In this document: positions 3,019 to 31,371 of the stretch, piece after piece | Numbering within the stretch: the first letter of the stretch is position 1 | Layout of the letters: each line of letters begins with the position of its first letter | Source of the DNA: Bryobacteraceae bacterium | GTDB lineage: Bacteria > Acidobacteriota > Terriglobia > Bryobacterales > Bryobacteraceae | Length of the DNA stretch: 64,000 bases | Reading direction: 5' to 3' | NCBI GenBank assembly: GCA_035484655.1 | Contig: DATHOT010000117.1 | Span: 16,414-80,413 of the forward strand | The notes under the pieces: generated by a model | Seen by the model: only the letters and a program-made list of their open reading frames with translations | Database searches by the model: none | What the model was told of the DNA's origin: nothing | Translations under genes and position numbers: made by a program

Positions 3019-4926
3019 CTAGATTCTGTGGAAGCTTTTCAGAATATCCCGCATTGAGTAACGCAGTGCGATCGGCCGCCCATGCGGACAGCTCATGGGG
3101 CACTCAGTCGCGCCCAATTGCGTCAGCAGCCATTCCATCTTGGCGCCATCGAGCCGCATGTTAATTTTTATGGCGGCCCGGCAGGCGATGCTGGCGGCCA
3201 TTGCGCGGCGCAGATCGCCCATAGATACTTTGCGAAGCTCACTTTCCGCGATTTCCAGGATTTCGAACACAAGCTTCTCGATGTCGCCGGGGCCGACGCC
3301 GGCGGGCGCTCCCTTCACTGCAATGGTGCGCTGTCCGAAAGGCTCGGTATCAAAGCCCGCTCGCTCCAGTTCGCCCGCGATCTGCGCATATTCGATCTGT
3401 TGGCCGGCCGTCAGCTCGATCAGGATCGGCATCAGTAATTGCTGGCGCTCAACGAGGCCGTGAGCCTGTTGGCGCAACACTTGTTCAAACAAAATGCGCT
3501 CGTGCGCCACGTGCTGGTCGATGATCCAGAGGCCGTCGCGGCCGGCGGCGATGATGAAGCTGTCGTGAAGCTGGCCCAGTGGCCGCAGGTCCGCAAGACT
3601 CGCGAGACTTTGGGGCGGCTCGGCCCCCAGCGGCAATGGCCCGTGCGTGTCAGGAACATGTGGCACAGGCGTCCCTGCCTGGTGTGGCACAGGTGTTGCT
3701 TCACTGAAATCAAACCTGGGCGCCGTTGCCGCCCCAGTCTTGAGTGTGAAAACGGGCAGGTCTTCCGCCCGTTCCGTTCCCGCGTCGATGTCCGCGGTCC
3801 CCTCGAAGCGCTGATTCTCGATACGCTGCGTGAAATCGGAAAACGGCAGGTCGGCGGCCGGCTGTGGCTGGGTTGAAACGGGGACGCTGGAGGCGGGGCG
3901 CGCCGCGATCAGCCGGTTGCGAATGGCGTCGCGGACGAAATCATGCACAAAGGTGCCGTGCCGGAAGCGCACTTCGGTCTTGGAGGGGTGCACATTGACG
4001 TCCACTTCCTCGCAATCGCAATCGACAAAGAGCAGCGCGAAAGGGTAACAGGCCGGCGGCATCAGGTTGTGATATGCCGACGAGAGCGCGTGCAGCAAGA
4101 CGCGATCGCGAATCAGCCGTCCATTCACAAACAAAAAAATCGAATTCCGGTTCAGCTTCTGCACCTGCGGCCCGGAGACAAACCCGCGTAGCGCAAACAC
4201 ACGGCTGCCGCGTTCTTCGGCCTCGACGACTTCGAGTTCGCGCTCGACGAAATCAAGATCGATCAGCTCTTCCAGCGTCTGGTTGCCGAATACCTGGTAG
4301 ACTCGTTCGCGCAGCGTTTCAACCGGTGTGACGTCCAGCAATTCGTTCCCGCCATGCCGCAATTGAAACGATTTTTGTGGATGCGCCAGGCTGTAATGCG
4401 TTGCCAACGACGCGATGTGCGCCAGCTCGGTTTGATCGGAGCGCAGAAACTTCTTTCGCGCCGGAACATTGAAGAACAGGTCGCGGACCGTGACCGTAGT
4501 CCCAGCCGGGCCGGGATACTCGTCGCAGCGCAGCAGCTTTCCGCCGTTGATTTCCACCGCAGCGCCAGTGGTCTCGTCCTCCGATCGTGTTTCCAGGACC
4601 AGGCGCGATACCGAAGCGATGGAGGGCAGGGCTTCACCGCGAAAGCCCAGCGTCGCGATCGAAAGGAGGTCACGAACGTCGCTCAGCTTGCTGGTGGCAT
4701 GCCGCTCGAAAGCGAGCAGGGCGTCATCGCGCAACATCCCGCAGCCGTTGTCGGCCACGCGGATGAGCCTGCGGCCGCCGCTTTCTACTTCAATGCGAAG
4801 TTCGGTGGCCCCGGCATCCAGGGAGTTTTCGATCAGTTCTTTGACAACGGAAGCCGGACGCTCGACAACCTCACCAGCGGCAATCTTATTTGCGACCGTA
4901 TCGGACAGGACGCGTATTCGGCCCAC
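3019..4926 (-). CDS. mutL: DNA mismatch repair protein MutL (endonuclease-type)
   Basis: GHKL ATPase N-terminus [28 protein letters not shown]-terminal [14 protein letters not shown] matches the DQHAxxExxxxE endonuclease motif. Confidence 0.95.
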
Positions 4927-7078: not shown

Positions 7079-9514
7079 CTAATGTGAAATTCGTTCCTCG
7101 CTCGGTCCGCGCACCAGTTCCACTGGCGGCGTCGTGCTGGCCAGCGGCAGCGCAATGATTTCTCTTTCCAGAGCCAGCTTCAACACTTCGTCCATCGAGC
7201 CCACGAAGTGGAGACTCATGTCTTTTCGAACGTTCTCCGGAATATCGGGGAGGTCTTTTTCATTATCCTTCGGAAGGATCAGTTCGTGAATCCCCTGGCG
7301 ATGGGCCGCCAGCACTTTTTCCTTCAACCCGCCGATAGGCAAAACCCGACCGCGCACCGTGATCTCGCCCGTCATTGCGATATTACAGCGAACCGGAATG
7401 TTAGTCAGCGCGCTGCAGATGCTGGTGGCGATCGTAATGCCAGCCGACGGACCGTCCTTGGGAATCGCTCCCTCCGGCACGTGTACATGAATATCCAGGT
7501 TCCGGTAGAAATCCCGCTGCAATCCGAGTAGTTGCGCTCGAGACCTTACGTAGCTCATCGCCGCGTGGGCCGACTCTTGCATGACATCGCCCAGCTTACC
7601 GGTGGTTTGCAGTTTACCCTTACCTTCCATCACCGCGGCTTCGGTGGTCAGAATCGATCCGCCCACTTCGGTCCACGCCAGGCCAACCGTGGCCCCAACC
7701 TCATTCTCCTTGTCGCATTGAAGATCCCGGAATTTCTGCGGGCCCAGGAAATCGCTCGCGGTCTCGGGATTGAGAATCGCTCTAGCGGTCTTTTTCGACG
7801 GTTTCGGCTCGCTTTGGGCGTTGACCACCTTGCGAGCAACTTTGCGGCAGACGTTTCCGATCTCCCGCTCCAGGTTGCGCACGCCAGCTTCGCGTGTGTA
7901 GGACTGGATCAAAGTCTGCAAGCCGTCGTCGGAGAATTCCAGGTCGTCTTTGCCGACGCCGGTCTGCTTCATCTGCTTCGGAACCAGGAATCGTTTCCCA
8001 ATCTCGAGCTTTTCGTGCTCGGTATAGCCGGAGAGCCGGATCACTTCCATGCGATCCTGCAGCGCCGGCGGCACAGTATGCAGCACATTGGCGGTAGCGA
8101 TAAAAAAGACCTGGCTCAAATCGTATTCGACATCCAGGTAGTGATCCATGAACATATAGTTCTGTTCCGGATCGAGGACTTCGAGCAGGGCGGCCGACGG
8201 ATCGCCCCGGAAATCCATCGACATCTTGTCCACTTCATCCAGCATGAAAACCGGATTCCGGGTCCCGGCCTTCTTCATCATTTGAAGAATCTGGCCTGGG
8301 AGAGCTCCGATGTAAGTTCTTCGATGACCGCGAATTTCGGCTTCGTCACGCACGCCACCTAAAGACAGCCGGACAAACTTTCGTCCGGTGGCCTTGGCGA
8401 TCGACATCCCCAGCGAAGTTTTGCCCACGCCGGGAGGGCCGACAAAGCACAGAATCGATCCTTTGGGATTTTGCACCAGGCGACGGACGGCCAGGAACTC
8501 AAGAATTCGCTCCTTGATCTTCTCCAGGCCATAGTGATCGGATTCGAGCACCTGCTGGGCGAATTTCAGATTCCGGATTTCCTTGCTCTTCTTTTTCCAC
8601 GGCACCGCTAGCAGCCAATCCAGATAATTGCGCGAAACCGTGGATTCAGCCGACATGGGCGGCATATTTTCCAGGCGCCGCAGCTCCGCGATGGCCTTCT
8701 CGTGGGCATCTTTGGTCATGCCCGCGGTATCGATTTTCTTCTTCAGCTCGTCGAATTCGCTTTTTTCGCCGCGCCCCAGCTCTTTCTGGATGGCCTTGAT
8801 CTTTTCGTTAAGGTAGTACTCTTTTTGTGCCTTTTCCATCTGGCGCTTCACGCGGCCCTGGATGGTGCGATCGACATTCAGCTTCTCGATTTCGATGTCG
8901 AGCATCTCGGCTACGCGGGTCAGCCGGTCTACCGGATCGAAGATTTCGAGCAGCTCCTGCTTCTCTTCGATGGTCAACTGCAGGTTGGCGCCCACTGTAT
9001 CGGCCAGCTTGCCGGGTTCGTCCACCCGGATAGCCGCAATCATCGTTTCATAGTTCAGATTCTGGCTGAGCTTGACGTATTGCTCGAACAGGCCGGTAAC
9101 GCGCGTAACCAGGGACTCCAGTTGCGGGCCGGCTTCAACCTTGAAGTTGAAGGTTTTCACTACCGCGCGAAAGTAACCTTCGTCTTCGCTGACGGAGATA
9201 ATCTTGCCGCGTTCCACGCCTTCGACAAGAACTTTGATGTTTCCGTCGGGCAGTTTCAGGCTTTGGACGATATTGGCAACGGTTCCAACACTATAGATCT
9301 CATCGGGACGGGGTTCGTCCACTGACGCATCGTGTTGGGTGGTGAGGAAAATCTTCTTGTCCGCAGTCAAAGCTTCTTCCAAAGCCCTGACGCTCGAGTC
9401 CCTTCCGACCACAAATGGGGTCATCATGTACGGGAAGATGACAACATCCCGTATGGGCATCATGGGCAAGCGCTTCGTATCGGATTTTTCTTTGGAGGTA
9501 AGCATTCGGTTCAC
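7079..9514 (-). CDS. lon: ATP-dependent Lon protease (LonA)
   Basis: N-domain [18 protein letters not shown]+ Walker [12 protein letters not shown], protease active-site region [10 protein letters not shown]. Size is 811 aa. Confidence 0.97.
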
Positions 9515-14738: not shown

Positions 14739-16901
14739 ATGAAGCGCGCGCTCGCCCTCGTTCTCGCCATTACCGCATTGCAAGCCTCCGAGGCAATCCG
14801 CCTCCCCGGGCTCGATCAACAGGTCGAAATCCTGCGCGACCACTGGGGCGTGCCGCACATCTACGCCGCCACCACGCACGACCTCTTCTTCGCCCAAGGC
14901 TACATTACCGCTAAAGATCGCCTTTTCCAGATCGATCTCTGGCGCCGCGCCGGCACTGGAAGGCTGGCCGAAATCCTCGGACCCTCGGCCGTCGAGCGCG
15001 ACAAACTCGCCCGCGCAGTCAATTATCGTGGCGACTGGAACGCAGAGTGGTCCGCCTACGGCCCCGACACCAAAGCCATTGTCACGGCCTTCACCAACGG
15101 CATCAATGCTTACATCCGAACCCTCGGCGCAAAGCTTCCGTCCGAATTTGAAATGGCCGGCTACAGCCCCGCGCTCTGGGCTCCCGAGGATTGCTTGAGC
15201 CGTGTCGCCGGTCTCACCATGACCGGCAATCTCATGCGCGAGGTCTCGCACGCTGAAGAGATTCGACGCCTCGGTCTCGATCGCGCCCGCCAGTTTATTC
15301 GCCTGGAACCGGCCGTCCCGCTGGTGATCCCCGAAGGTCTGGACCTTTCCGCGATCAATCGCGACATTATTGCCGCCTACCGCGAGACGGTCGGCCCGGT
15401 GAGTGTGACTACCGAACAAGGCAGCAACAACTGGGTTGTCGATGGCACCATGACTACAACCGGCCGCCCGATTCTCGCCAACGATCCGCATCGCCCTGTT
15501 CAGCTTCCTTCTTTACGCAAGACCGTTCATCTGGTCGGGCCGGGTTGGGACGCCATCGGCTCCGGCGAACCCGCGCTGCCGGGCATCGCGATCGGGCACA
15601 ACGAAAACATCGCGTTCGGATTGACCATCGTCGGGATCGACCAGCAGGATCTGTATGTCGAAACCGTCAATCCCGCCAATCCGGCCGAGTATCGTTATCG
15701 CGGAGCGTGGAAGAAGTTCGACACCGACCGACAGAAACTTACGGTCAAAGGCCAAGGCGATCAGAACATCATCCTGCGCTACACCATCCATGGGCCCGTC
15801 ATCTATGAAGATCCCGCGCATCGCCACGCCTACGTACTGCGCTGGGTGGGCAGCGAACCGGGGACCGCCGGATATCTGGCCGGACTCTCCCTCGCTCGCG
15901 CTAACGACTGGAAGGAATTTCGCACGGCTATGTCCCGCTACCAGGTGCCCTCGGAAAATCTGGTTTATGCCGACACAAAAGGCAATATCGGGTGGCAGGT
16001 TGGCGGCCTGACACCGATCCGCGACGGATGGTCGGGACTTTTGCCTGTGCCTGGCGAGGACGGGCGCTACGAATGGAAGGGATTTCAGAAGCCGGACGTG
16101 TTGCCATTCGAATTCAATCCATCGCGCCACTACATCGCCACGGCGAACAACAACATCCTGCCCCCTGGCTACTCGATCCCGCTCGGGTACGACGGTTGGG
16201 CGCTTCCGTTCCGCGTCATGCGGATTCGCGAAATGCTCTCCGGCGGCAAGAAGTTCGACGTCCCCGACTTTGAGCGCATGCAACAGGACGTGACCTCGCT
16301 ACCGGCCCGCCGCTTCCAACAGATCCTGAAGAATTGGAACCCCGATCAGGGCACGCGCGCCGCCAAAATCGTCGACGAAATTCTCAATTGGAATGGTGTG
16401 CTAGGTGTGGATTCACGCCCGGCTCTCATTTACGAGGTCTGGCTCTCGAAGCTCCCGGTTGCCCCGCTCGACACCGAGCCCGATGGCCCGGCACTGAAGA
16501 AATCGCTGGATGCCGCGCTGCTTGAGATCGAGCAGCAATTCGGCGCCGACCCAGCCAAGTGGCAATGGGGCAAGCTGCACCAACTCACCCTAGTGCATCC
16601 GTTGGGCAAACGCGAATTCCGGCTCGGACCAGTGCCGCGGCCCGGCGATGCCAACACCGTGAATGCCACCAGTGGCGAGCATCTTCAGCAGACCAACGGA
16701 GCGTCCTGGCGCGAGATCCTGGACGTCGGCGATTGGGACCGCTCCGTCATGACCAACGTTCCCGGCGAGTCAGGCGATCCATCCAGCAAGCACTACAGTG
16801 ATCTGCTGCAGGATTGGGGCGCCGGGCGTTATCATCCGATGCCATTTTCGCGCCAGGCGGTTGAAGCCGCTACTGAAGAGCGCATTATGCTGAGGCCTTA
16901 A
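14739..16901 (+). CDS. Penicillin acylase family Ntn-hydrolase (possible acyl-homoserine-lactone or beta-lactam acylase)
   Basis: Signal peptide. Alpha-chain DRLFQIDLWRR. Nucleophile-serine context TTEQGSNNWVVDG. Size is 720 aa. Confidence 0.88.
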   Translation: MKRALALVLAITALQASEAIRLPGLDQQVEILRDHWGVPHIYAATTHDLFFAQGYITAKDRLFQIDLWRRAGTGRLAEILGPSAVERDKLARAVNYRGDWNAEWSAYGPDTKAIVTAFTNGINAYIRTLGAKLPSEFEMAGYSPALWAPEDCLSRVAGLTMTGNLMREVSHAEEIRRLGLDRARQFIRLEPAVPLVIPEGLDLSAINRDIIAAYRETVGPVSVTTEQGSNNWVVDGTMTTTGRPILANDPHRPVQLPSLRKTVHLVGPGWDAIGSGEPALPGIAIGHNENIAFGLTIVGIDQQDLYVETVNPANPAEYRYRGAWKKFDTDRQKLTVKGQGDQNIILRYTIHGPVIYEDPAHRHAYVLRWVGSEPGTAGYLAGLSLARANDWKEFRTAMSRYQVPSENLVYADTKGNIGWQVGGLTPIRDGWSGLLPVPGEDGRYEWKGFQKPDVLPFEFNPSRHYIATANNNILPPGYSIPLGYDGWALPFRVMRIREMLSGGKKFDVPDFERMQQDVTSLPARRFQQILKNWNPDQGTRAAKIVDEILNWNGVLGVDSRPALIYEVWLSKLPVAPLDTEPDGPALKKSLDAALLEIEQQFGADPAKWQWGKLHQLTLVHPLGKREFRLGPVPRPGDANTVNATSGEHLQQTNGASWREILDVGDWDRSVMTNVPGESGDPSSKHYSDLLQDWGAGRYHPMPFSRQAVEAATEERIMLRP

Positions 16902-21265: not shown

Positions 21266-21733
21266 ATGAATATCTATCGATTCGCACTGATGCTCTTTCC
21301 TCTCTTCTTCTGCTTGCCCGCGCAGCCCCAGGAACTGCCCCAAGCCAAGGGCCGGGACCTGTATGAAAAAATCTGCGGTTCCTGTCACGGAACGGACGTC
21401 GTCTTCAAGACTCGAACCACCAAGGAAAAGTGGAAGACCACGGTGGACGAAATGGCGGCGCGCGGCGCTGAGGGCACCGACGAGCAGCTCGACACGATCA
21501 TCGATTACCTGGCCAAGTGTTTCGGTCCGAGAGTCAACGTGAACAAGGCCGCGGCCAAAGAATTGGAGACGCAGTTCGAACTTACGGGCACCGAAGCAGA
21601 AGGAATTGTGAAATACCGGCAAGACAAAGGCGACCTTAAGGATGTGGCCGATCTGAAGAATGTGCCGGGGCTGGATTTCAAAAAGATCGAATCGGTGCGA
21701 TACCGAATTATTTTCGTGGACGGAGCCAAGTGA
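21266..21733 (+). CDS. Exported c-type cytochrome fused to a ComEA-like helix-hairpin-helix region
   Basis: Signal peptide, haem motif CGSCHG, then LTGTEAEGIVKYRQDKGDLKDVADLKNVPGLDFKKIE. Its stop overlaps the next gene's GTG (GTGA). Confidence 0.75.
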   Translation: MNIYRFALMLFPLFFCLPAQPQELPQAKGRDLYEKICGSCHGTDVVFKTRTTKEKWKTTVDEMAARGAEGTDEQLDTIIDYLAKCFGPRVNVNKAAAKELETQFELTGTEAEGIVKYRQDKGDLKDVADLKNVPGLDFKKIESVRYRIIFVDGAK

Positions 21734-23247
21734 GGGCGTTGTTTTTACTGGCCGCCTCAGGCGCGCTCGTGGGCGCGCCGGCCGACCGTGCCTCCTGCGT
21801 GAACCTGTCTAAGCTCATTCTGCCGAACACAACGATCACCAAAGCACAATTCTCCGCCGCCGGTCCCAACGCGCCGGCTCCCGATCATGGACTCGCACCC
21901 CCGAAGGACCATGAAGTAAGCGATCTGCCTGCCTTCTGCCGAGTGCTGGCGACGATTGCCCCTACTAGTGACTCCGACATCGTTGTCGAAATCTTTCTTC
22001 CTATCTCAGGTTGGAATGGCAAGTTTCAAGCCGTCGGCAATGGCGGCTGGGGCATAATTAACTACATGGCATTCAACGCAGCCCTACGCCGCGGATATGC
22101 GACGGCCACCACAAACACTGGTCACTCGAGCGGTGGCAGCGCCAGCTTCGCGCTCGGCCATCCCGAAAAGCTCACCGATTTCGCTTATCGGGCCGTACAC
22201 GAAATGACCGTCACCTCGAAGGCCATCATCACGAATTTCTACGGTAGTGGCCCGCGCTACTCTTATTGGAACGGCTGCTCGACCGGCGGCCGCCAAGGTT
22301 TGAAGGAAGCGCAGCGATTTCCGGCCGACTTCGACGGCATTATCGCGGGCGCTCCCGCCAACTATCAAACGCATCTGCATGTATGGTCTGTGGCGGTAGC
22401 CCAGGCAGTCCACAAAGAACCCGGAAGCTACATTCCGCCGGAGAAATATCCGGCCATTCACAAAGCAGCGCTGGAAGCCTGCGATGCGCTGGATGGATTG
22501 AAGGACGGCTTGATTCAAGATCCGACGCGGTGCCATTTCGATCCCCAGGTAATCGAGTGCCAGGGTGAAGATTCGCCCTCATGCTTGACCGCGCCGCAGG
22601 TGGAAGCCGCCCGCAAGATCTATGCAGCAGTGAAAAATTCTCGCACCGGCGCGGAGATTTTCCCTGGCATGGAGCCCGGCAGCGAACTGGGTTGGGCGGG
22701 GCTCGCCGGACCGAAAGCTGCCTCCGTAGCTACCGATACCTTCACCTACATCGTGTACAAAGATCCCAACTGGGACTGGCACACCTTGAATCCGGAAACT
22801 GACACCGAGCTCGCCGACAAGATCGATAATGGCCTGATCGACGCCATCGACCCCAATCTCAAGCCATTCTTCAGTCACAAAGGTAAGCTAATCATGTATC
22901 ACGGCTGGAGTGATCAGCTCATCGCGCCTGGCAACAGCGTGAATTATTACGAAAGCGTGGTGAAGAAGATGGGTGCTGCGTCGAAAGCCGCCGATGAGAT
23001 CCGGCTCTTCATGGTCCCCGGCATGGCGCACTGCGCGGGCGGCGAAGGACCCAACACTTTCGACATGGTCAGCGCCATGGAGCAATGGGTGGAGCAAGGA
23101 CACGCCCCCGAGCGGATCATTGCGTCGCACAGCCAGAACGGGACGGTAGACCGCATGCGTCCCCTCTGTCCGTATCCGCAGGTCGCGCGCTATAAAGGGA
23201 CCGGGAGCATCGACGACGCAGCGAATTTCACTTGCGCGGCGCCCTAG
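21730..23247 (+). CDS. Tannase/feruloyl esterase family alpha/beta hydrolase, exported
   Basis: Nucleophile context YWNGCSTGGRQGLKEAQRFP and FMVPGMAHCAGGEGP. Size is 505 aa. Confidence 0.9.
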   Translation: MRALFLLAASGALVGAPADRASCVNLSKLILPNTTITKAQFSAAGPNAPAPDHGLAPPKDHEVSDLPAFCRVLATIAPTSDSDIVVEIFLPISGWNGKFQAVGNGGWGIINYMAFNAALRRGYATATTNTGHSSGGSASFALGHPEKLTDFAYRAVHEMTVTSKAIITNFYGSGPRYSYWNGCSTGGRQGLKEAQRFPADFDGIIAGAPANYQTHLHVWSVAVAQAVHKEPGSYIPPEKYPAIHKAALEACDALDGLKDGLIQDPTRCHFDPQVIECQGEDSPSCLTAPQVEAARKIYAAVKNSRTGAEIFPGMEPGSELGWAGLAGPKAASVATDTFTYIVYKDPNWDWHTLNPETDTELADKIDNGLIDAIDPNLKPFFSHKGKLIMYHGWSDQLIAPGNSVNYYESVVKKMGAASKAADEIRLFMVPGMAHCAGGEGPNTFDMVSAMEQWVEQGHAPERIIASHSQNGTVDRMRPLCPYPQVARYKGTGSIDDAANFTCAAP

Positions 23248-26350: not shown

Positions 26351-27106
26351 TCACTTCGCCAGTGGGGGTGCCTTGATGTGGCCCTCGCGCAGATCCTTGT
26401 TGTTCTCCTCGCACGAGTATTCGAGCAATTCCCAGTCGGGCCGCAGCGTGAACGTTCGAACGTTTTTCCACGGTTTCGCATAGGTCTTTGGATCGTCCAC
26501 CGTCACCGTGTAAGTGACGTGGCCCGCATCCGCCCGTTCGAAGGTTTCGACCATATGCAAGGCGTCGCTATGGGGATGCCCGACGGTGTCGAGTCGTGTC
26601 TGGCCGTTGAAGTCGATCGTGTCGATGACCAGGGTGTCACCATCCCACTTGCCGACGGAGTTTCCAAACCACGTGGGATCCAGGTCCTTCGAATGGCCGC
26701 GCCCGTCCGTAGGGACAACGTGAAACCAGGTATTCTGCTCGTACAAGAAAGCAACGTACTTCGCGCTCTGCACGATCTGCATCGCGTGCGGCGAGTTCAT
26801 CGACCGCAGGAGGCCAAATGGCAGGCAGCTTCCGGTGTAGTCGCCATTCTTCGCCGGGTCGTAGGTTTTCCAATTGTCGGCGCCCCAGGCTGTGAACGAA
26901 AGTTCTGGAACGCCCTGCTGGCCGGGCCCGTTCTTAGTGATATCGGGAACATAGGGCCGCTGCCAGACGCCGTTGAGGTCGGGCTTGCCGTCGGGGAGCC
27001 TGGGCGCGGCACCGGTTGGAGCGGCCGGCTTTTGCCCAAAGGCGAACAAACCGGATAGAAGCAAGATGGTGGCTAGCGCCGCGGCGGACTTGGCGAATAA
27101 CATCAA
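26351..27106 (-). CDS. Exported protein of unknown function
   Basis: Clear signal peptide MMLFAKSAAALATILLLSGLFAFG. Coding-like 251-aa ORF. I recognise no family. Confidence 0.6.
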   Translation of the reverse strand: MMLFAKSAAALATILLLSGLFAFGQKPAAPTGAAPRLPDGKPDLNGVWQRPYVPDITKNGPGQQGVPELSFTAWGADNWKTYDPAKNGDYTGSCLPFGLLRSMNSPHAMQIVQSAKYVAFLYEQNTWFHVVPTDGRGHSKDLDPTWFGNSVGKWDGDTLVIDTIDFNGQTRLDTVGHPHSDALHMVETFERADAGHVTYTVTVDDPKTYAKPWKNVRTFTLRPDWELLEYSCEENNKDLREGHIKAPPLAK

Positions 27107-27816: not shown

Positions 27817-27904
27817 TCGTTTGAAGCCTAGACTCTGAAATATCTGATCGGCCGCGATCCACGTAGCCGTGCTACATTATGAAACAATCCAGGAGGATTG
27901 CGCG

Positions 27905-29821
27905 ATGGCGAAATCCAAGAAGACTTCGGTTGCTCGTCGTAATTTCTTGAAGGGGGCGGCCGCCGGCGCGGCAGCTCTGGTTGCTAAGCCCCAACCTACA
28001 ATTGCACAGCAAACCGCGCAGAAAGGTGGCAACGCCACCGCGCCCATTCCGTCCAGCGCCGCCTTGGAGCGCGAAGCCCCCACCAGCGAGGGCGGACGCG
28101 GCTCCGAAGCTCCCGGAAAAATCATCGAGCATCCTGGCTCCGACTTCATGGTGGACGTGATCAAGTCGCTCAAGATTGACTATCTCGGTTCCAACCCCGG
28201 CTCAACCTTTGAATCGCTGCATGAGTCGCTCATTAATTACGGCAACAACCAGATGCCGGAGTTCCTGACCTGCTGCCACGAGGAATCGGCCGTCGCCATG
28301 GCGCACGGCTATTACAAGATCGAAGGCCGGCCGATGATGGCGCTTCTGCACGGCACCGTCGGGCTCCAGCACGCTTCGATGGCCATCTACAACGCGTACG
28401 CCGACCGTGTCCCGATCTATATGATCGTCGGCAACCACTCCGACGCCGCGGTCCGGCGGCCTGGCGTGGAATGGTATCACAGCGCGCAGGATCTGCCGGC
28501 GCTGGTGCGCGACTACGTAAAGTGGGACGATCAGCCGGCTTCGCTGCAGCATTTCGCCGATTCCGCCGTGCGCGCTTACAAAGTTGCGATGACGCCGCCC
28601 ATGGGTCCGGTGCTGCTGGTGGCGCATCACGAACTGCAGTCGCGGCCCAATACCGAACCCAGCAGTCTGCGCATTCCGCACATGACTCCGACCGCGCCTC
28701 CGCAAGGCGACACGGACGCCGTGAACGAAGCGGCCAAGCTGCTTGTCGCGGCCGAGCGGCCCATGATCATCGCGCAACGATCCGCCCGAACTCCCAAGGG
28801 TGTCACGCTGCTAGTGGAGCTGGCCGAGACTTTGCAAGCGCCGGTCGAGAACCAGGAGCGGATGAATTTCCCGTCGCATCATCCTCTCAACGGCGTCGGC
28901 TGGCCCGGTTACCAACCGGACGTCACACTCTGCCTCGAAGTCAACGACGTCTCGAATACCGAACGCATCGCCCGGGGCCGCAACGCCAAGGTCATCAACA
29001 TCTCTTCGGTCGATCTGTTCATGAAGAGCAACATCCAGGATTTCGGCCGCTATGCCGACGTCGACATCGATATCGGAGCCGATGCCGAAGCCACGCTACC
29101 GGCCTTGATCGAAGCCTGCAAGCGTCTCATCACGCCGGACCGTAAACGCGCCATGGAAGATCGGGGCGCCAAGCTGGCCGAGGCGCACAAGAAAGCTCGC
29201 GCGATGTCGATCGAGCAGGCGTCGTACGGCTGGGATTCGAGCCCCATCACTTTGGCCCGCCTCTGCGCGGAACTGTGGCCGCTAATCAAGAACGAAGACT
29301 GGTCGCTGGTGTCGTGGCAAGGTTTCATCAGCAACTGGCCGAACCGGTTGTGGAAGTTCGACAAGCACTACCAATACATCGGTGGCCAAGGCGCGGGCGG
29401 CATGGGCTACGGCGCTCCGGCGGCAGTGGGCGCGGCGCTCGCTAACAAGAAGTACGGCCGGTTCTCGCTCAACATCCAGACTGATGGCGATCTCAACTAC
29501 GCTCCCGGCGTGTTGTGGACCGCCGCGCATCACCGCATCCCGCTGCTCACCATTATGCACAACAACCGCGGTTATCACATGGAGGTAATGTTCGTCGAGC
29601 AGCAGGCCAGCCTGCACAATCGCGGCGCCGATCGCGCTCATATCGGCACCAAGCTGTGGGATCCGAATATCGATTACGCAAAAATGGCGCAAGCTTACGG
29701 CATGCACGGCGAAGGTCCAATCAGCGACCCTAAGGACCTGGTCGCGGCGCTCCAGCGTGGCATCGAAGTCGTCAAGCGCGGCGAGCCGGCCATGATCGAC
29801 GTGGTCACGCAGCCGCGGTAA
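27905..29821 (+). CDS. Thiamine-diphosphate-dependent enzyme (acetolactate synthase/pyruvate oxidase superfamily) with twin-arginine signal
   Basis: ATG at 27905, 8 nt after AGGAGG. Tat motif VARRNFLKGAAAGAAALVA. N-domain CCHEESAVAMAHGY. ThDP motif IQTDGDLNY...IMHNNRGY. Confidence 0.85.
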   Translation: MAKSKKTSVARRNFLKGAAAGAAALVAKPQPTIAQQTAQKGGNATAPIPSSAALEREAPTSEGGRGSEAPGKIIEHPGSDFMVDVIKSLKIDYLGSNPGSTFESLHESLINYGNNQMPEFLTCCHEESAVAMAHGYYKIEGRPMMALLHGTVGLQHASMAIYNAYADRVPIYMIVGNHSDAAVRRPGVEWYHSAQDLPALVRDYVKWDDQPASLQHFADSAVRAYKVAMTPPMGPVLLVAHHELQSRPNTEPSSLRIPHMTPTAPPQGDTDAVNEAAKLLVAAERPMIIAQRSARTPKGVTLLVELAETLQAPVENQERMNFPSHHPLNGVGWPGYQPDVTLCLEVNDVSNTERIARGRNAKVINISSVDLFMKSNIQDFGRYADVDIDIGADAEATLPALIEACKRLITPDRKRAMEDRGAKLAEAHKKARAMSIEQASYGWDSSPITLARLCAELWPLIKNEDWSLVSWQGFISNWPNRLWKFDKHYQYIGGQGAGGMGYGAPAAVGAALANKKYGRFSLNIQTDGDLNYAPGVLWTAAHHRIPLLTIMHNNRGYHMEVMFVEQQASLHNRGADRAHIGTKLWDPNIDYAKMAQAYGMHGEGPISDPKDLVAALQRGIEVVKRGEPAMIDVVTQPR

Positions 29822-29830
29822 GGAGTAAGC

Positions 29831-30172
29831 GTGAACAAGATAATCTTGATCCTGGTCTTGGCCGTTATGGCGGCGGCGCAATCGAAAGCGCCCTCGGGTG
29901 ACGCCGCGCGCGGCAAAGAGATGTACGTGAAATACACCTGCTACGCCTGTCACAGCTTCGATGGCCATGGAGGCGCCGGCGCGCGCCTGGTTCCGATGAA
30001 GATGCTGCTGCCGGTGTTCACGGCCTACGTGCGCGCCCCGCGCCAGATGCCGGCCTATCGGGAAAAGGTGATGTCCGACTCCGACCTCGCCGACGTGTAC
30101 GCGTACATCAAATCGATTCCCGAATCCCCCGCCGCCAAGAGCATTCCGCTACTGTCGCAATTGCCCCAGTAA
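29831..30172 (+). CDS. Exported monohaem c-type cytochrome
   Basis: GTG start 9 nt after the TPP gene. Signal peptide. Haem motif CYACHSFDG. Size is 113 aa. Confidence 0.8.
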   Translation: MNKIILILVLAVMAAAQSKAPSGDAARGKEMYVKYTCYACHSFDGHGGAGARLVPMKMLLPVFTAYVRAPRQMPAYREKVMSDSDLADVYAYIKSIPESPAAKSIPLLSQLPQ

Positions 30173-30543: not shown

Positions 30544-31371
30544 ATGGAGATCGACAGACGCGCGTTCTTTGCCAGCCTCGGTGGCGCGGCCGCCATCAGT
30601 GCCATGGACTCGGAGGCAAAAGCAGACGCACTGGAAGATTATATGTCCGAGCAGTTGGACAACGGAGCAGCCAACAGCGCTTCCACCACCAGCCCCGACA
30701 AGAAGTTTCCAACCGTAGCCGAACTGGATGCCCAGATTACAACGCGTGACTATCGCAGAGGTGTCGGCACTCTTTTTGCCAACAACGGTAGAAACGTCAA
30801 GAAGCTCGAGCCGCTGCCCGCCAACCCAACCCTGCTCGATTTCTTCAAGTACCGGTTCGCTCCCGCCAACCACGTTCTCCAAAGCGCCACCCGCGCTATG
30901 AAAACTGGCATGACAGAGGAAATCATCCTGGCCTGCCTGCTTCACGACGTCGTGCAGTCTTTGATCAAGCCCGATCACGGATGGTGGGGCGCTCAGCTCT
31001 TCGAGCCCTATATTTCTCCCAAAGCAACCTTCGCCATTCGGTACCACCAGACCCTTCGTTTCTATCCCGATTCAGCGGCCGGATATGAGTACCCGGACCT
31101 GTACTACAGAATATTCGGGAAGGATTACACGCCGCCGCCGCACATCGAAGCCACGTATAAAATGCTCAAAAACCACAAGTGGTACATGGAACCACGGCTG
31201 GTAACTGTAAACGATTTGTACGCCTTCGACCCCAACGCAGTGGTGACCATCGATCCGTTCGTCGACATCGTCGGACGCCACTTCAAGCAGCCCAAAGAAG
31301 GCCTGGGCAACGACAACAGTCCGGTCGCCCACATGTGGCGCACCATCGCGCGGCCCGATTCGCCCCTGTAA
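30544..31371 (+). CDS. HD-domain protein resembling the myo-inositol oxygenase/PhnZ diiron oxygenase group, with Tat-like signal
   Basis: RBS AAAGGAGAG. N-terminus MEIDRRAFFASLGGAAAISAM. NHVLQSATRAM...ACLLHDV (H...HD), DHGWWGAQ, and AIRYHQTLRFYP, which resembles the MIOX IRYHSFYPWH region. Confidence 0.6.
   Translation: MEIDRRAFFASLGGAAAISAMDSEAKADALEDYMSEQLDNGAANSASTTSPDKKFPTVAELDAQITTRDYRRGVGTLFANNGRNVKKLEPLPANPTLLDFFKYRFAPANHVLQSATRAMKTGMTEEIILACLLHDVVQSLIKPDHGWWGAQLFEPYISPKATFAIRYHQTLRFYPDSAAGYEYPDLYYRIFGKDYTPPPHIEATYKMLKNHKWYMEPRLVTVNDLYAFDPNAVVTIDPFVDIVGRHFKQPKEGLGNDNSPVAHMWRTIARPDSPL

Follow-up and report, generated by a model that had tools for sequence, protein, structure and literature searches.

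Why should a thiamine diphosphate (ThDP) enzyme carry a signal for export in the folded state, and why should the gene of a small cytochrome c begin nine nucleotides after its stop codon? The two features meet in a window of 64,000 nucleotides (nt), positions 16,414 to 80,413 of the forward strand of contig DATHOT010000117.1 in the Bryobacteraceae bacterium assembly GCA_035484655.1, where positions 27905-30172 encode P0002, a protein of the acetolactate synthase/pyruvate oxidase superfamily with a twin-arginine translocation (Tat) leader, and P0001, a cytochrome with a CxxCH haem motif. To our knowledge, this superfamily of ThDP enzymes is regarded as cytoplasmic, and the cofactors usually listed as passing through Tat do not include ThDP. 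A first-pass annotation of this DNA had read the pair as a periplasmic 2-oxoacid (or related) dehydrogenase that donates electrons to cytochrome c. The observation is confirmed, and the interpretation is supported to the extent that sequence analysis allows: the leader and the pairing proved to be conserved, and the redox function we infer. We think it probable that the two genes form a periplasmic ThDP-dependent oxidoreductase, a Tat-exported enzyme that passes electrons to its own dedicated cytochrome c.

A conserved twin-arginine leader marks one clade of ThDP enzymes

The features to which the argument refers are the following.

27891..27896, + strand: Shine-Dalgarno sequence AGGAGG of the P0002 gene, separated by 8 nt from the ATG at 27905 (read from the sequence)
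27905..29821, + strand: gene of the 638-residue Tat-leader ThDP enzyme P0002 (translation, Pfam, AlphaFold2 and Foldseek)
27905..28009, + strand: predicted twin-arginine signal peptide, residues 1 to ~35, with the RR codons at 27935-27940
28010..28129, + strand: variable Ala/Pro/Gln-rich linker, residues ~36-75 (~40 residues), from the alignment; the catalytic core begins near residue 76
28130..28654, + strand: PYR (N-terminal ThDP) domain, matching Pfam TPP_enzyme_N and containing E126, within CCHEES, and His149
28280-28282, + strand: GAG codon of the predicted catalytic Glu126, aligned with the conserved ThDP-activating Glu of the benzoylformate decarboxylase-like chain 4q9d
28667..29254, + strand: middle (TH3/R) domain, of which only the first half matches Pfam, with the motif IIAQ-R292-SA-R295-TP
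29327..29803, + strand: PP (C-terminal ThDP) domain, matching Pfam TPP_enzyme_C
29483-29566, + strand: Mg/diphosphate motif T-D527-G-D ... N553-N554, read from P0002
29558-29590, + strand: clade signature H552-NNR-G-Y-H558-x-E560-x-M562, residues 552-562, directly after the Mg-binding NN in the alignment
29822..29830, + strand: intergenic spacer of 9 nt including GGAG (read from the sequence)
29831..30172, + strand: gene of the 113-residue monohaem class I cytochrome c P0001, with a GTG start (translation, Pfam)
29939-29953, + strand: haem motif C37-Y-A-C40-H41 of P0001 (translation)
30047-30049, + strand: M73, followed by P74, the candidate distal haem ligand of P0001 (translation)

The start that had been called for P0002 (AGGAGG, 8 nt, then ATG) and the limits of the two-gene stretch stand as annotated, and the translation opens with MAKSKKTSVARRNFLKGAAAGAAALVAKPQPTIAQQ. 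The leader contains the twin-arginine motif ARRNFLKGAAAGAAALVA and consists, in order, of a Lys-rich n-region, A-R11-R12-N-F-L-K, the h-region GAAAGAAALVA and a Lys-containing c-region, KPQPTIAQQ, in agreement with the Tat consensus, in which S/T-R-R-x-F-L-K precedes an h-region of moderate hydrophobicity and a c-region. RR.F[LI] occupies the same place in about 74 of the 80 related loci that were retrieved from one-genome-per-species contigs, and most of those without it resemble broken high-scoring segments; all four paralogues of the source genome (59-64% identity) bear RR(N/D/G)FLKGAA, and NCBI labels close homologues 'twin-arginine translocation signal domain-containing protein.' The region between leader and core is of low complexity, weakly conserved and variable in length in the alignment, as expected for a signal with a linker; relatives without the leader have no linker. 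The source genome, an acidobacterial metagenome-assembled genome of ~91% completeness, encodes TatC (PF00902, 208 bits, G000:C114:37971-38624), and hence Tat machinery. The ThDP subunit is presumably exported.

An exhaustive homologue search over 1.84 billion cluster representatives separates the family sharply. Every full-length match of at least 44% identity (620-665 residues) has the RR leader; no match of 43% identity or less (560-617 residues) has one, and these proteins start 5-35 residues before the GSD..VD motif. A FastTree phylogeny splits the leader-bearing from the leaderless group with 99% local support. Their catalytic cores are colinear, so that, besides three indels of one to three columns, the N-terminal leader and linker are all that has been added. 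Being conserved and clade-defining, the leader is not a mis-called start or a chance extension. The clades also differ within the core, where N376, H552, H558, E560 and M562 of the leader-bearing proteins correspond to W, F, Y, D and E of the leaderless ones, and the signature at residues 552-562 to F-NNR-x-Y-Y-N-D-x-E-H-Q. At least 589 stretches of the family were confirmed in one-genome-per-species contigs, and the gene is present in only 9 of 401 sampled genomes of the phylum, a patchy distribution for a family that is numerous overall.

Within Acidobacteriota, only one leaderless relative was found, locus L094 (G112:C1:3421783-3426507). In it, a convergent open reading frame (ORF) for a 215-residue protein with dihaem CxxCH motifs (3338-3982, - strand) lies ~100 nt past the stop of the leaderless gene, by chance or perhaps as a remote trace of the pairing.

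The partner cytochrome accompanies the leader-bearing enzymes

The small CxxCH cytochrome that had been noted 9 nt downstream is indeed there, and the spacer with its GGAG is consistent with co-transcription and coupled translation of the two genes; related loci have spacers or overlaps of similar size. P0001 has a hydrophobic, Sec-type N-terminus, the single haem motif CYACH and the candidate distal Met, matches Cytochrome_CBB3 (PF13442) and Cytochrom_C (PF00034) above their cut-offs, and gives an AlphaFold2 model with pLDDT 88; signal peptide, single CxxCH, distal Met and all-alpha fold are together those of a class I c-type cytochrome. An alignment of 39 members of the cytochrome family has C37, C40, H41, R68 and M73 without exception and a conserved IPLL at the C-terminus. 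Foldseek matches to the model are weak (best E = 4.4e-3, none at E <= 0.001), but all are class I cytochromes c, including c552, c6, QcrC, PchC, SorU and cL/XoxG.

In 55 of the 73 loci whose enzyme gene is complete, a CxxCH ORF starts within a few nucleotides of the enzyme stop; some of these ORFs overlap it, and a few encode dihaem proteins. A profile of the cytochrome finds an orthologue (E ~1e-44) within 5 kb in a further 6 of the remaining 18, two of them directly upstream. Two loci end at the enzyme gene; of the 71 that can be assessed, 61 have the orthologue within 5 kb. On all four of the deepest branches of the leader-bearing clade, represented in one case by the finished Sphingomonas wittichii RW1 chromosome (CP000699.1), the cytochrome gene follows 0-13 nt downstream. 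Pairwise identities of enzyme and cytochrome co-vary (Mantel r = 0.75, reached in none of 999 permutations), which indicates co-inheritance; as kin share a history, this correlation does not by itself show physical interaction. The first-pass annotation had staked its reading on orthologues retaining the RR leader and the neighbouring cytochrome, and both prove to be retained, the former in the loci and paralogues counted above and in a well-supported clade, the latter down to its deepest branches.

Beyond the cytochrome, clustering of flanking ORFs of at least 90 residues gave no third component conserved in more than 10 of the 73 loci, and clustering of ORFs of 40-250 residues within 1.2 kb of the module gave no conserved small ORF. 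With no other conserved neighbour, the clade is that of a two-gene unit. The two genes were nowhere found fused among the best 120 near-length matches or 150 representatives; the longest of these proteins has 665 residues, a fusion of ~750 residues would fall inside the length range searched, and no separate search for longer proteins was made.

The source genome has a third, orphan copy of the partner cytochrome (G000:C46:8578-8844, - strand, 53% identity) with no adjoining ThDP gene; the next same-strand ORF downstream (7572-8558) encodes an unannotated protein of 328 residues. The orphan might serve the ThDP paralogue on contig C170, which has no cytochrome of its own.

The enzyme appears intact and belongs to no curated family

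P0002 ends with a TAA stop at 29819-29821 and, as the first-pass annotation had it, couples the motif ARRNFLK to an acetolactate synthase/pyruvate oxidase-superfamily protein. Pfam recognises TPP_enzyme_N (residues 78-185, 72 bits), TPP_enzyme_M (residues 273-333, 32 bits, a partial match covering profile positions 1-62 of 137) and TPP_enzyme_C (residues 475-633, 88 bits), and together with the AlphaFold2 model and Foldseek these matches give the three-domain PYR - middle - PP architecture of the decarboxylase (DC) superfamily of ThDP enzymes, to which acetolactate synthases, pyruvate oxidases (POX) and benzoylformate decarboxylase (BFDC) belong. The GDG-X(24-27)-NN motif is present as T526-D527-G528 ... 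N553-N554, with 24 residues separating G528 and N553. H149 aligns with the next conserved His of chain 4q9d. In an alignment of 68 sequences spanning 28-86% identity, E126, D527, G528 and N554 are invariant, and E126, D527 and N554 occur in all 68. The model built on this alignment for residues 70-638 has a mean pLDDT of 95.9 and pTM of 0.94. As far as can be judged from the sequence, the gene and its catalytic and cofactor motifs are intact, and the protein is presumably an active catalyst.

Its closest affiliation is less easily settled. With the model as query, Foldseek places glyoxylate carboligase, benzaldehyde lyase (BAL), 2-hydroxyacyl-CoA lyase (HACL), BFDC and acetohydroxyacid synthase (AHAS) all at TM 0.75-0.80 and 18-24% identity, so that no single family stands out. 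P0002 scores well below the cut-offs of the NCBIfam models for PRK08327 (NF006203; 253 bits vs 456), BFDC (NF005485; 158 vs 493), the acetolactate synthase large subunit (TIGR00118; 122 vs 538) and pyruvate oxidase/PoxB (NF006377; 88 vs 742). By these scores P0002 belongs to no curated family, its nearest neighbours being PRK08327-like, BFDC and HACL enzymes.

Comparison with known systems

BFDC (MdlC; PDB 4q9d, 1bfd, 7orx, 6qsi) has the same three-domain DC-family ThDP fold, and the BFDC-like 4q9d is the best sequence match among solved structures (E = 1e-32), with which P0002 aligns at the catalytic Glu, at H149 and over the Mg/diphosphate motif. However, BFDCs share only ~20-25% identity with P0002, are cytoplasmic, have neither a leader nor a cytochrome partner, and decarboxylate non-oxidatively. 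The best full-length profile match, extending over residues 76-636 against positions 9-569 of 571, is the PRK08327 'thiamine pyrophosphate-requiring protein' family, which is itself uncharacterised. The leaderless relatives, at 30-43% identity to P0002 and with a colinear core, also fall below the cut-off of its model; they lack the leader and differ at the clade signature residues. The actinobacterial HACL (AcHACL; PDB 7pt1-7pt4) is the best solved match to the middle domain alone, though a weak one (E = 9e-4), and shares with it the motif (G/Q)R-x-AR-T after the first strand (Foldseek TM 0.78); it differs in being cytoplasmic and not redox-active, and in acting on an acyl-CoA, a substrate not expected in the periplasm.

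In function, the closest analogy is offered by the pyruvate oxidases of the same superfamily, E. coli PoxB (pyruvate:quinone oxidoreductase) and L. plantarum POX, which oxidise hydroxyethyl-ThDP and pass the electrons on, in the case of PoxB to the respiratory chain. Unlike the system proposed here, they have flavin adenine dinucleotide (FAD) as a relay, reside in the cytoplasm or on the membrane's inner face, and deliver electrons to quinone or O2 rather than to cytochrome c. In architecture, the analogy is with the two-subunit periplasmic systems PchCF (p-cresol methylhydroxylase), FccAB (flavocytochrome c), SorAB/SorT-SorU (sulfite dehydrogenase) and XoxF-XoxG, in each of which a cofactor-loaded catalytic subunit is joined by an adjacent, small, Sec-exported class I cytochrome c. 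The catalytic subunit SorA is exported by Tat. The cofactors of these systems are FAD, molybdopterin or pyrroloquinoline quinone (PQQ), and ThDP is found in none of them; the similarity of the P0001 model to PchC, SorU and XoxG/cL-type cytochromes is weak (E 0.15-0.3). The module would thus resemble PoxB in chemistry and PchCF, SorAB or XoxFG in architecture, and on this comparison is a member of none of these families.

The first-pass annotation knew of no characterised example, and our survey of the literature, whose coverage leaves out most subscription journals, likewise yielded no account of a ThDP enzyme that is exported by Tat or paired with a cytochrome c; for Solibacter, only an 'acetolactate synthase' paralogue group is listed (PMC3174227).

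A possible mechanism and its alternatives

We envisage the following scheme. The large subunit would fold, bind ThDP-Mg2+ and oligomerise in the cytoplasm. The active sites of ThDP enzymes are formed between the two subunits of a dimer. Having to be loaded with cofactor and assembled before it leaves the cytoplasm, the catalytic subunit would go by Tat, exported already folded through its RRNFLK leader. The small subunit would be exported unfolded via Sec and have its haem attached in the periplasm. There, the ThDP subunit would form a C2-alpha carbanion/enamine when it decarboxylates a 2-oxo acid or attacks an aldehyde or an alpha-dicarbonyl (diketone); two successive one-electron oxidations of this intermediate would give acyl-ThDP, the electrons passing to the dedicated cytochrome c and on to a terminal oxidase, and hydrolysis of the acyl-ThDP would release a carboxylic acid. 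The physical association of enzyme and cytochrome, the redox chemistry and the absence of flavin are presumed in this scheme. A more specific version, to which we give rather less than even odds, has the enamine electrons of a flavin-free periplasmic ThDP enzyme going directly to the dedicated haem c, possibly via H552, H558 and M562; speculatively, these residues, together with E560, might form a remodelled site or relay the electrons. As to the substrate, an aromatic or plant-polymer-derived carbonyl compound is a weak guess, drawn from the BFDC/BAL/HACL-like ancestry and from the occasional tannase and TonB-receptor neighbours described below.

Several of our results weigh against this proposal and need to be considered together. 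The nearest solved relatives, BFDC, BAL and HACL, have no redox cofactor, and their lyase or decarboxylase reactions are non-oxidative. Since they are both non-oxidative and flavin-free, the electrons would have to leave ThDP without a flavin or iron-sulfur (Fe-S) relay, and we know of no precedent for transfer from ThDP to cytochrome c in this manner; the electron path from ThDP is the weak point of the proposal. The leaderless relatives keep nearly all of the conserved active-site residues (H125, E126, H149, R184, H192, K206, W207, R223, H326, R420 and R573), so the core chemistry need not be oxidative, and one of the two leaderless loci inspected (L093 and L094) has no CxxCH ORF nearby. The cytochrome is absent within 5 kb from ~10 of the 71 assessable loci. 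This absence is, however, scattered on the tree, requiring at least 9-13 changes, which fits an ancestral pairing followed by repeated secondary separation. Lastly, the Pfam TAT_signal model (PF10518) gives P0002 18.5 bits against a cut-off of 22.7.

Much of this would be expected if the enzyme were a non-redox periplasmic ThDP decarboxylase, lyase or carboligase of the BFDC/BAL type, and the cytochrome had a structural or regulatory role or served some other enzyme, such as a dehydrogenase acting on the aldehyde that is formed. The non-oxidative character of the closest solved relatives, the active-site residues shared with leaderless enzymes and the loci with no cytochrome nearby all speak for this alternative, as do the PQQ dehydrogenase-cytochrome genes near a few loci. 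It nevertheless seems unlikely to us, considering that a dedicated, orthologous, co-varying cytochrome gene adjoins or overlaps the enzyme gene throughout the clade, from Acidobacteriota to Sphingomonas, that no third enzyme is conserved alongside, and that a cytochrome beside a pure lyase has no obvious role. The relay problem would disappear if the protein were instead a flavin-containing, pyruvate-oxidase-like 2-oxo acid:cytochrome c oxidoreductase whose middle domain holds FAD as the electron relay between ThDP and haem. Tat export suits flavoproteins, and the FAD-binding glyoxylate carboligase and AHAS match the model at the same TM as the flavin-free enzymes do. Yet the pyruvate oxidase model scores far short of its cut-off (88 bits vs 742), and TPP_enzyme_M is matched over its first 62 positions only. 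Where the middle domain of FAD- and ADP-binding members has a Gly-rich loop behind its first strand, P0002 has AQRSAR. The middle domain is nearest to that of AcHACL, in which the nucleotide site is filled by side chains (PMC8760513). We regard a flavin relay of this kind as quite improbable. The superfamily named by the first-pass annotation stands; a PoxB-like, flavin-mediated reaction is disfavoured by the flavin-free BFDC/HACL type of the nearest relatives and by the low scores of pyruvate oxidase models.

The sub-threshold Pfam score might also be taken to mean that the leader is not a working export signal, leaving the protein in the cytoplasm or anchored by its uncleaved N-terminus, with the cytochrome adjacent by coincidence. 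This we consider very improbable indeed. The Tat consensus is matched down to the c-region Lys, the motif is kept across 44-97% identity while the linker drifts, the presence of the leader tracks exactly with that of the periplasmic partner, and TatC is present.

Implications

If the two genes do encode a periplasmic ThDP-dependent oxidoreductase, the periplasmic dehydrogenase-cytochrome c systems, so far based on PQQ, flavin or molybdenum, would gain a further class of cofactor, and soil Acidobacteriota, among other bacteria, would have a new way of drawing respiratory energy from small carbonyl compounds that need not be imported. The enzyme would also pose an enzymological puzzle, that of ThDP electrons leaving without a flavin or Fe-S cluster. 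Should the transfer prove to be flavin-free and direct, the module would open a class of its own, that of respiratory 'carbonyl/2-oxo acid:cytochrome c oxidoreductases', with its large subunit as the first documented Tat-exported ThDP protein. As Sphingomonas wittichii RW1 is a cultured carrier, the idea is directly testable.

Other neighbours of the module

Additional copies of the module's own genes are found in some loci. Across the 73 loci there are 11 extra ThDP copies within 5 kb of the query gene; in L013 and L018 a second ThDP paralogue stands in tandem, and L013 has a second cytochrome gene as well.

Among the commonest neighbours after the cytochrome is a family represented in the window at 26351-27106 (- strand) by a secreted protein of 251 residues without a Pfam match; homologues of 34-42% identity, with a median length of ~286 residues in the related loci, lie within 5 kb of the module in eight other loci. 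On the other side of the module, positions 30544-31371 (+ strand) encode a protein of 275 residues with a Tat-like leader, RRAFFASLGGAAA, and no Pfam match. It is unrelated to the recurrent 286-residue family, and we rejected it as a component of the module, as it recurs only in the 97%-identical locus L008.

Tannase/feruloyl-esterase genes are found beside the module in seven loci, mostly of the window's own subclade, where they are directly adjacent. The window has one at 21730-23247 (+ strand); in L011, L013, L014 and L066 they lie upstream of the ThDP gene, and in L012 (L012:6913-8430) one lies 14 nt downstream. These neighbours give a weak hint of a substrate derived from aromatic esters. 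Genes for TonB-dependent receptors and PQQ dehydrogenase-cytochromes are further occasional neighbours.

In S. wittichii RW1 (L090, CP000699.1:1690600-1700558), an ORF at 3465-4001 of the locus, encoding a predicted membrane protein of 178 residues without a Pfam match, ends exactly at the start of the ThDP gene. The module, at about 1,694,600-1,696,923 of the chromosome, adjoins a resolvase/recombinase gene and is itself followed by genes for an alpha/beta-hydrolase, a thiolase and an acyl-CoA synthetase.

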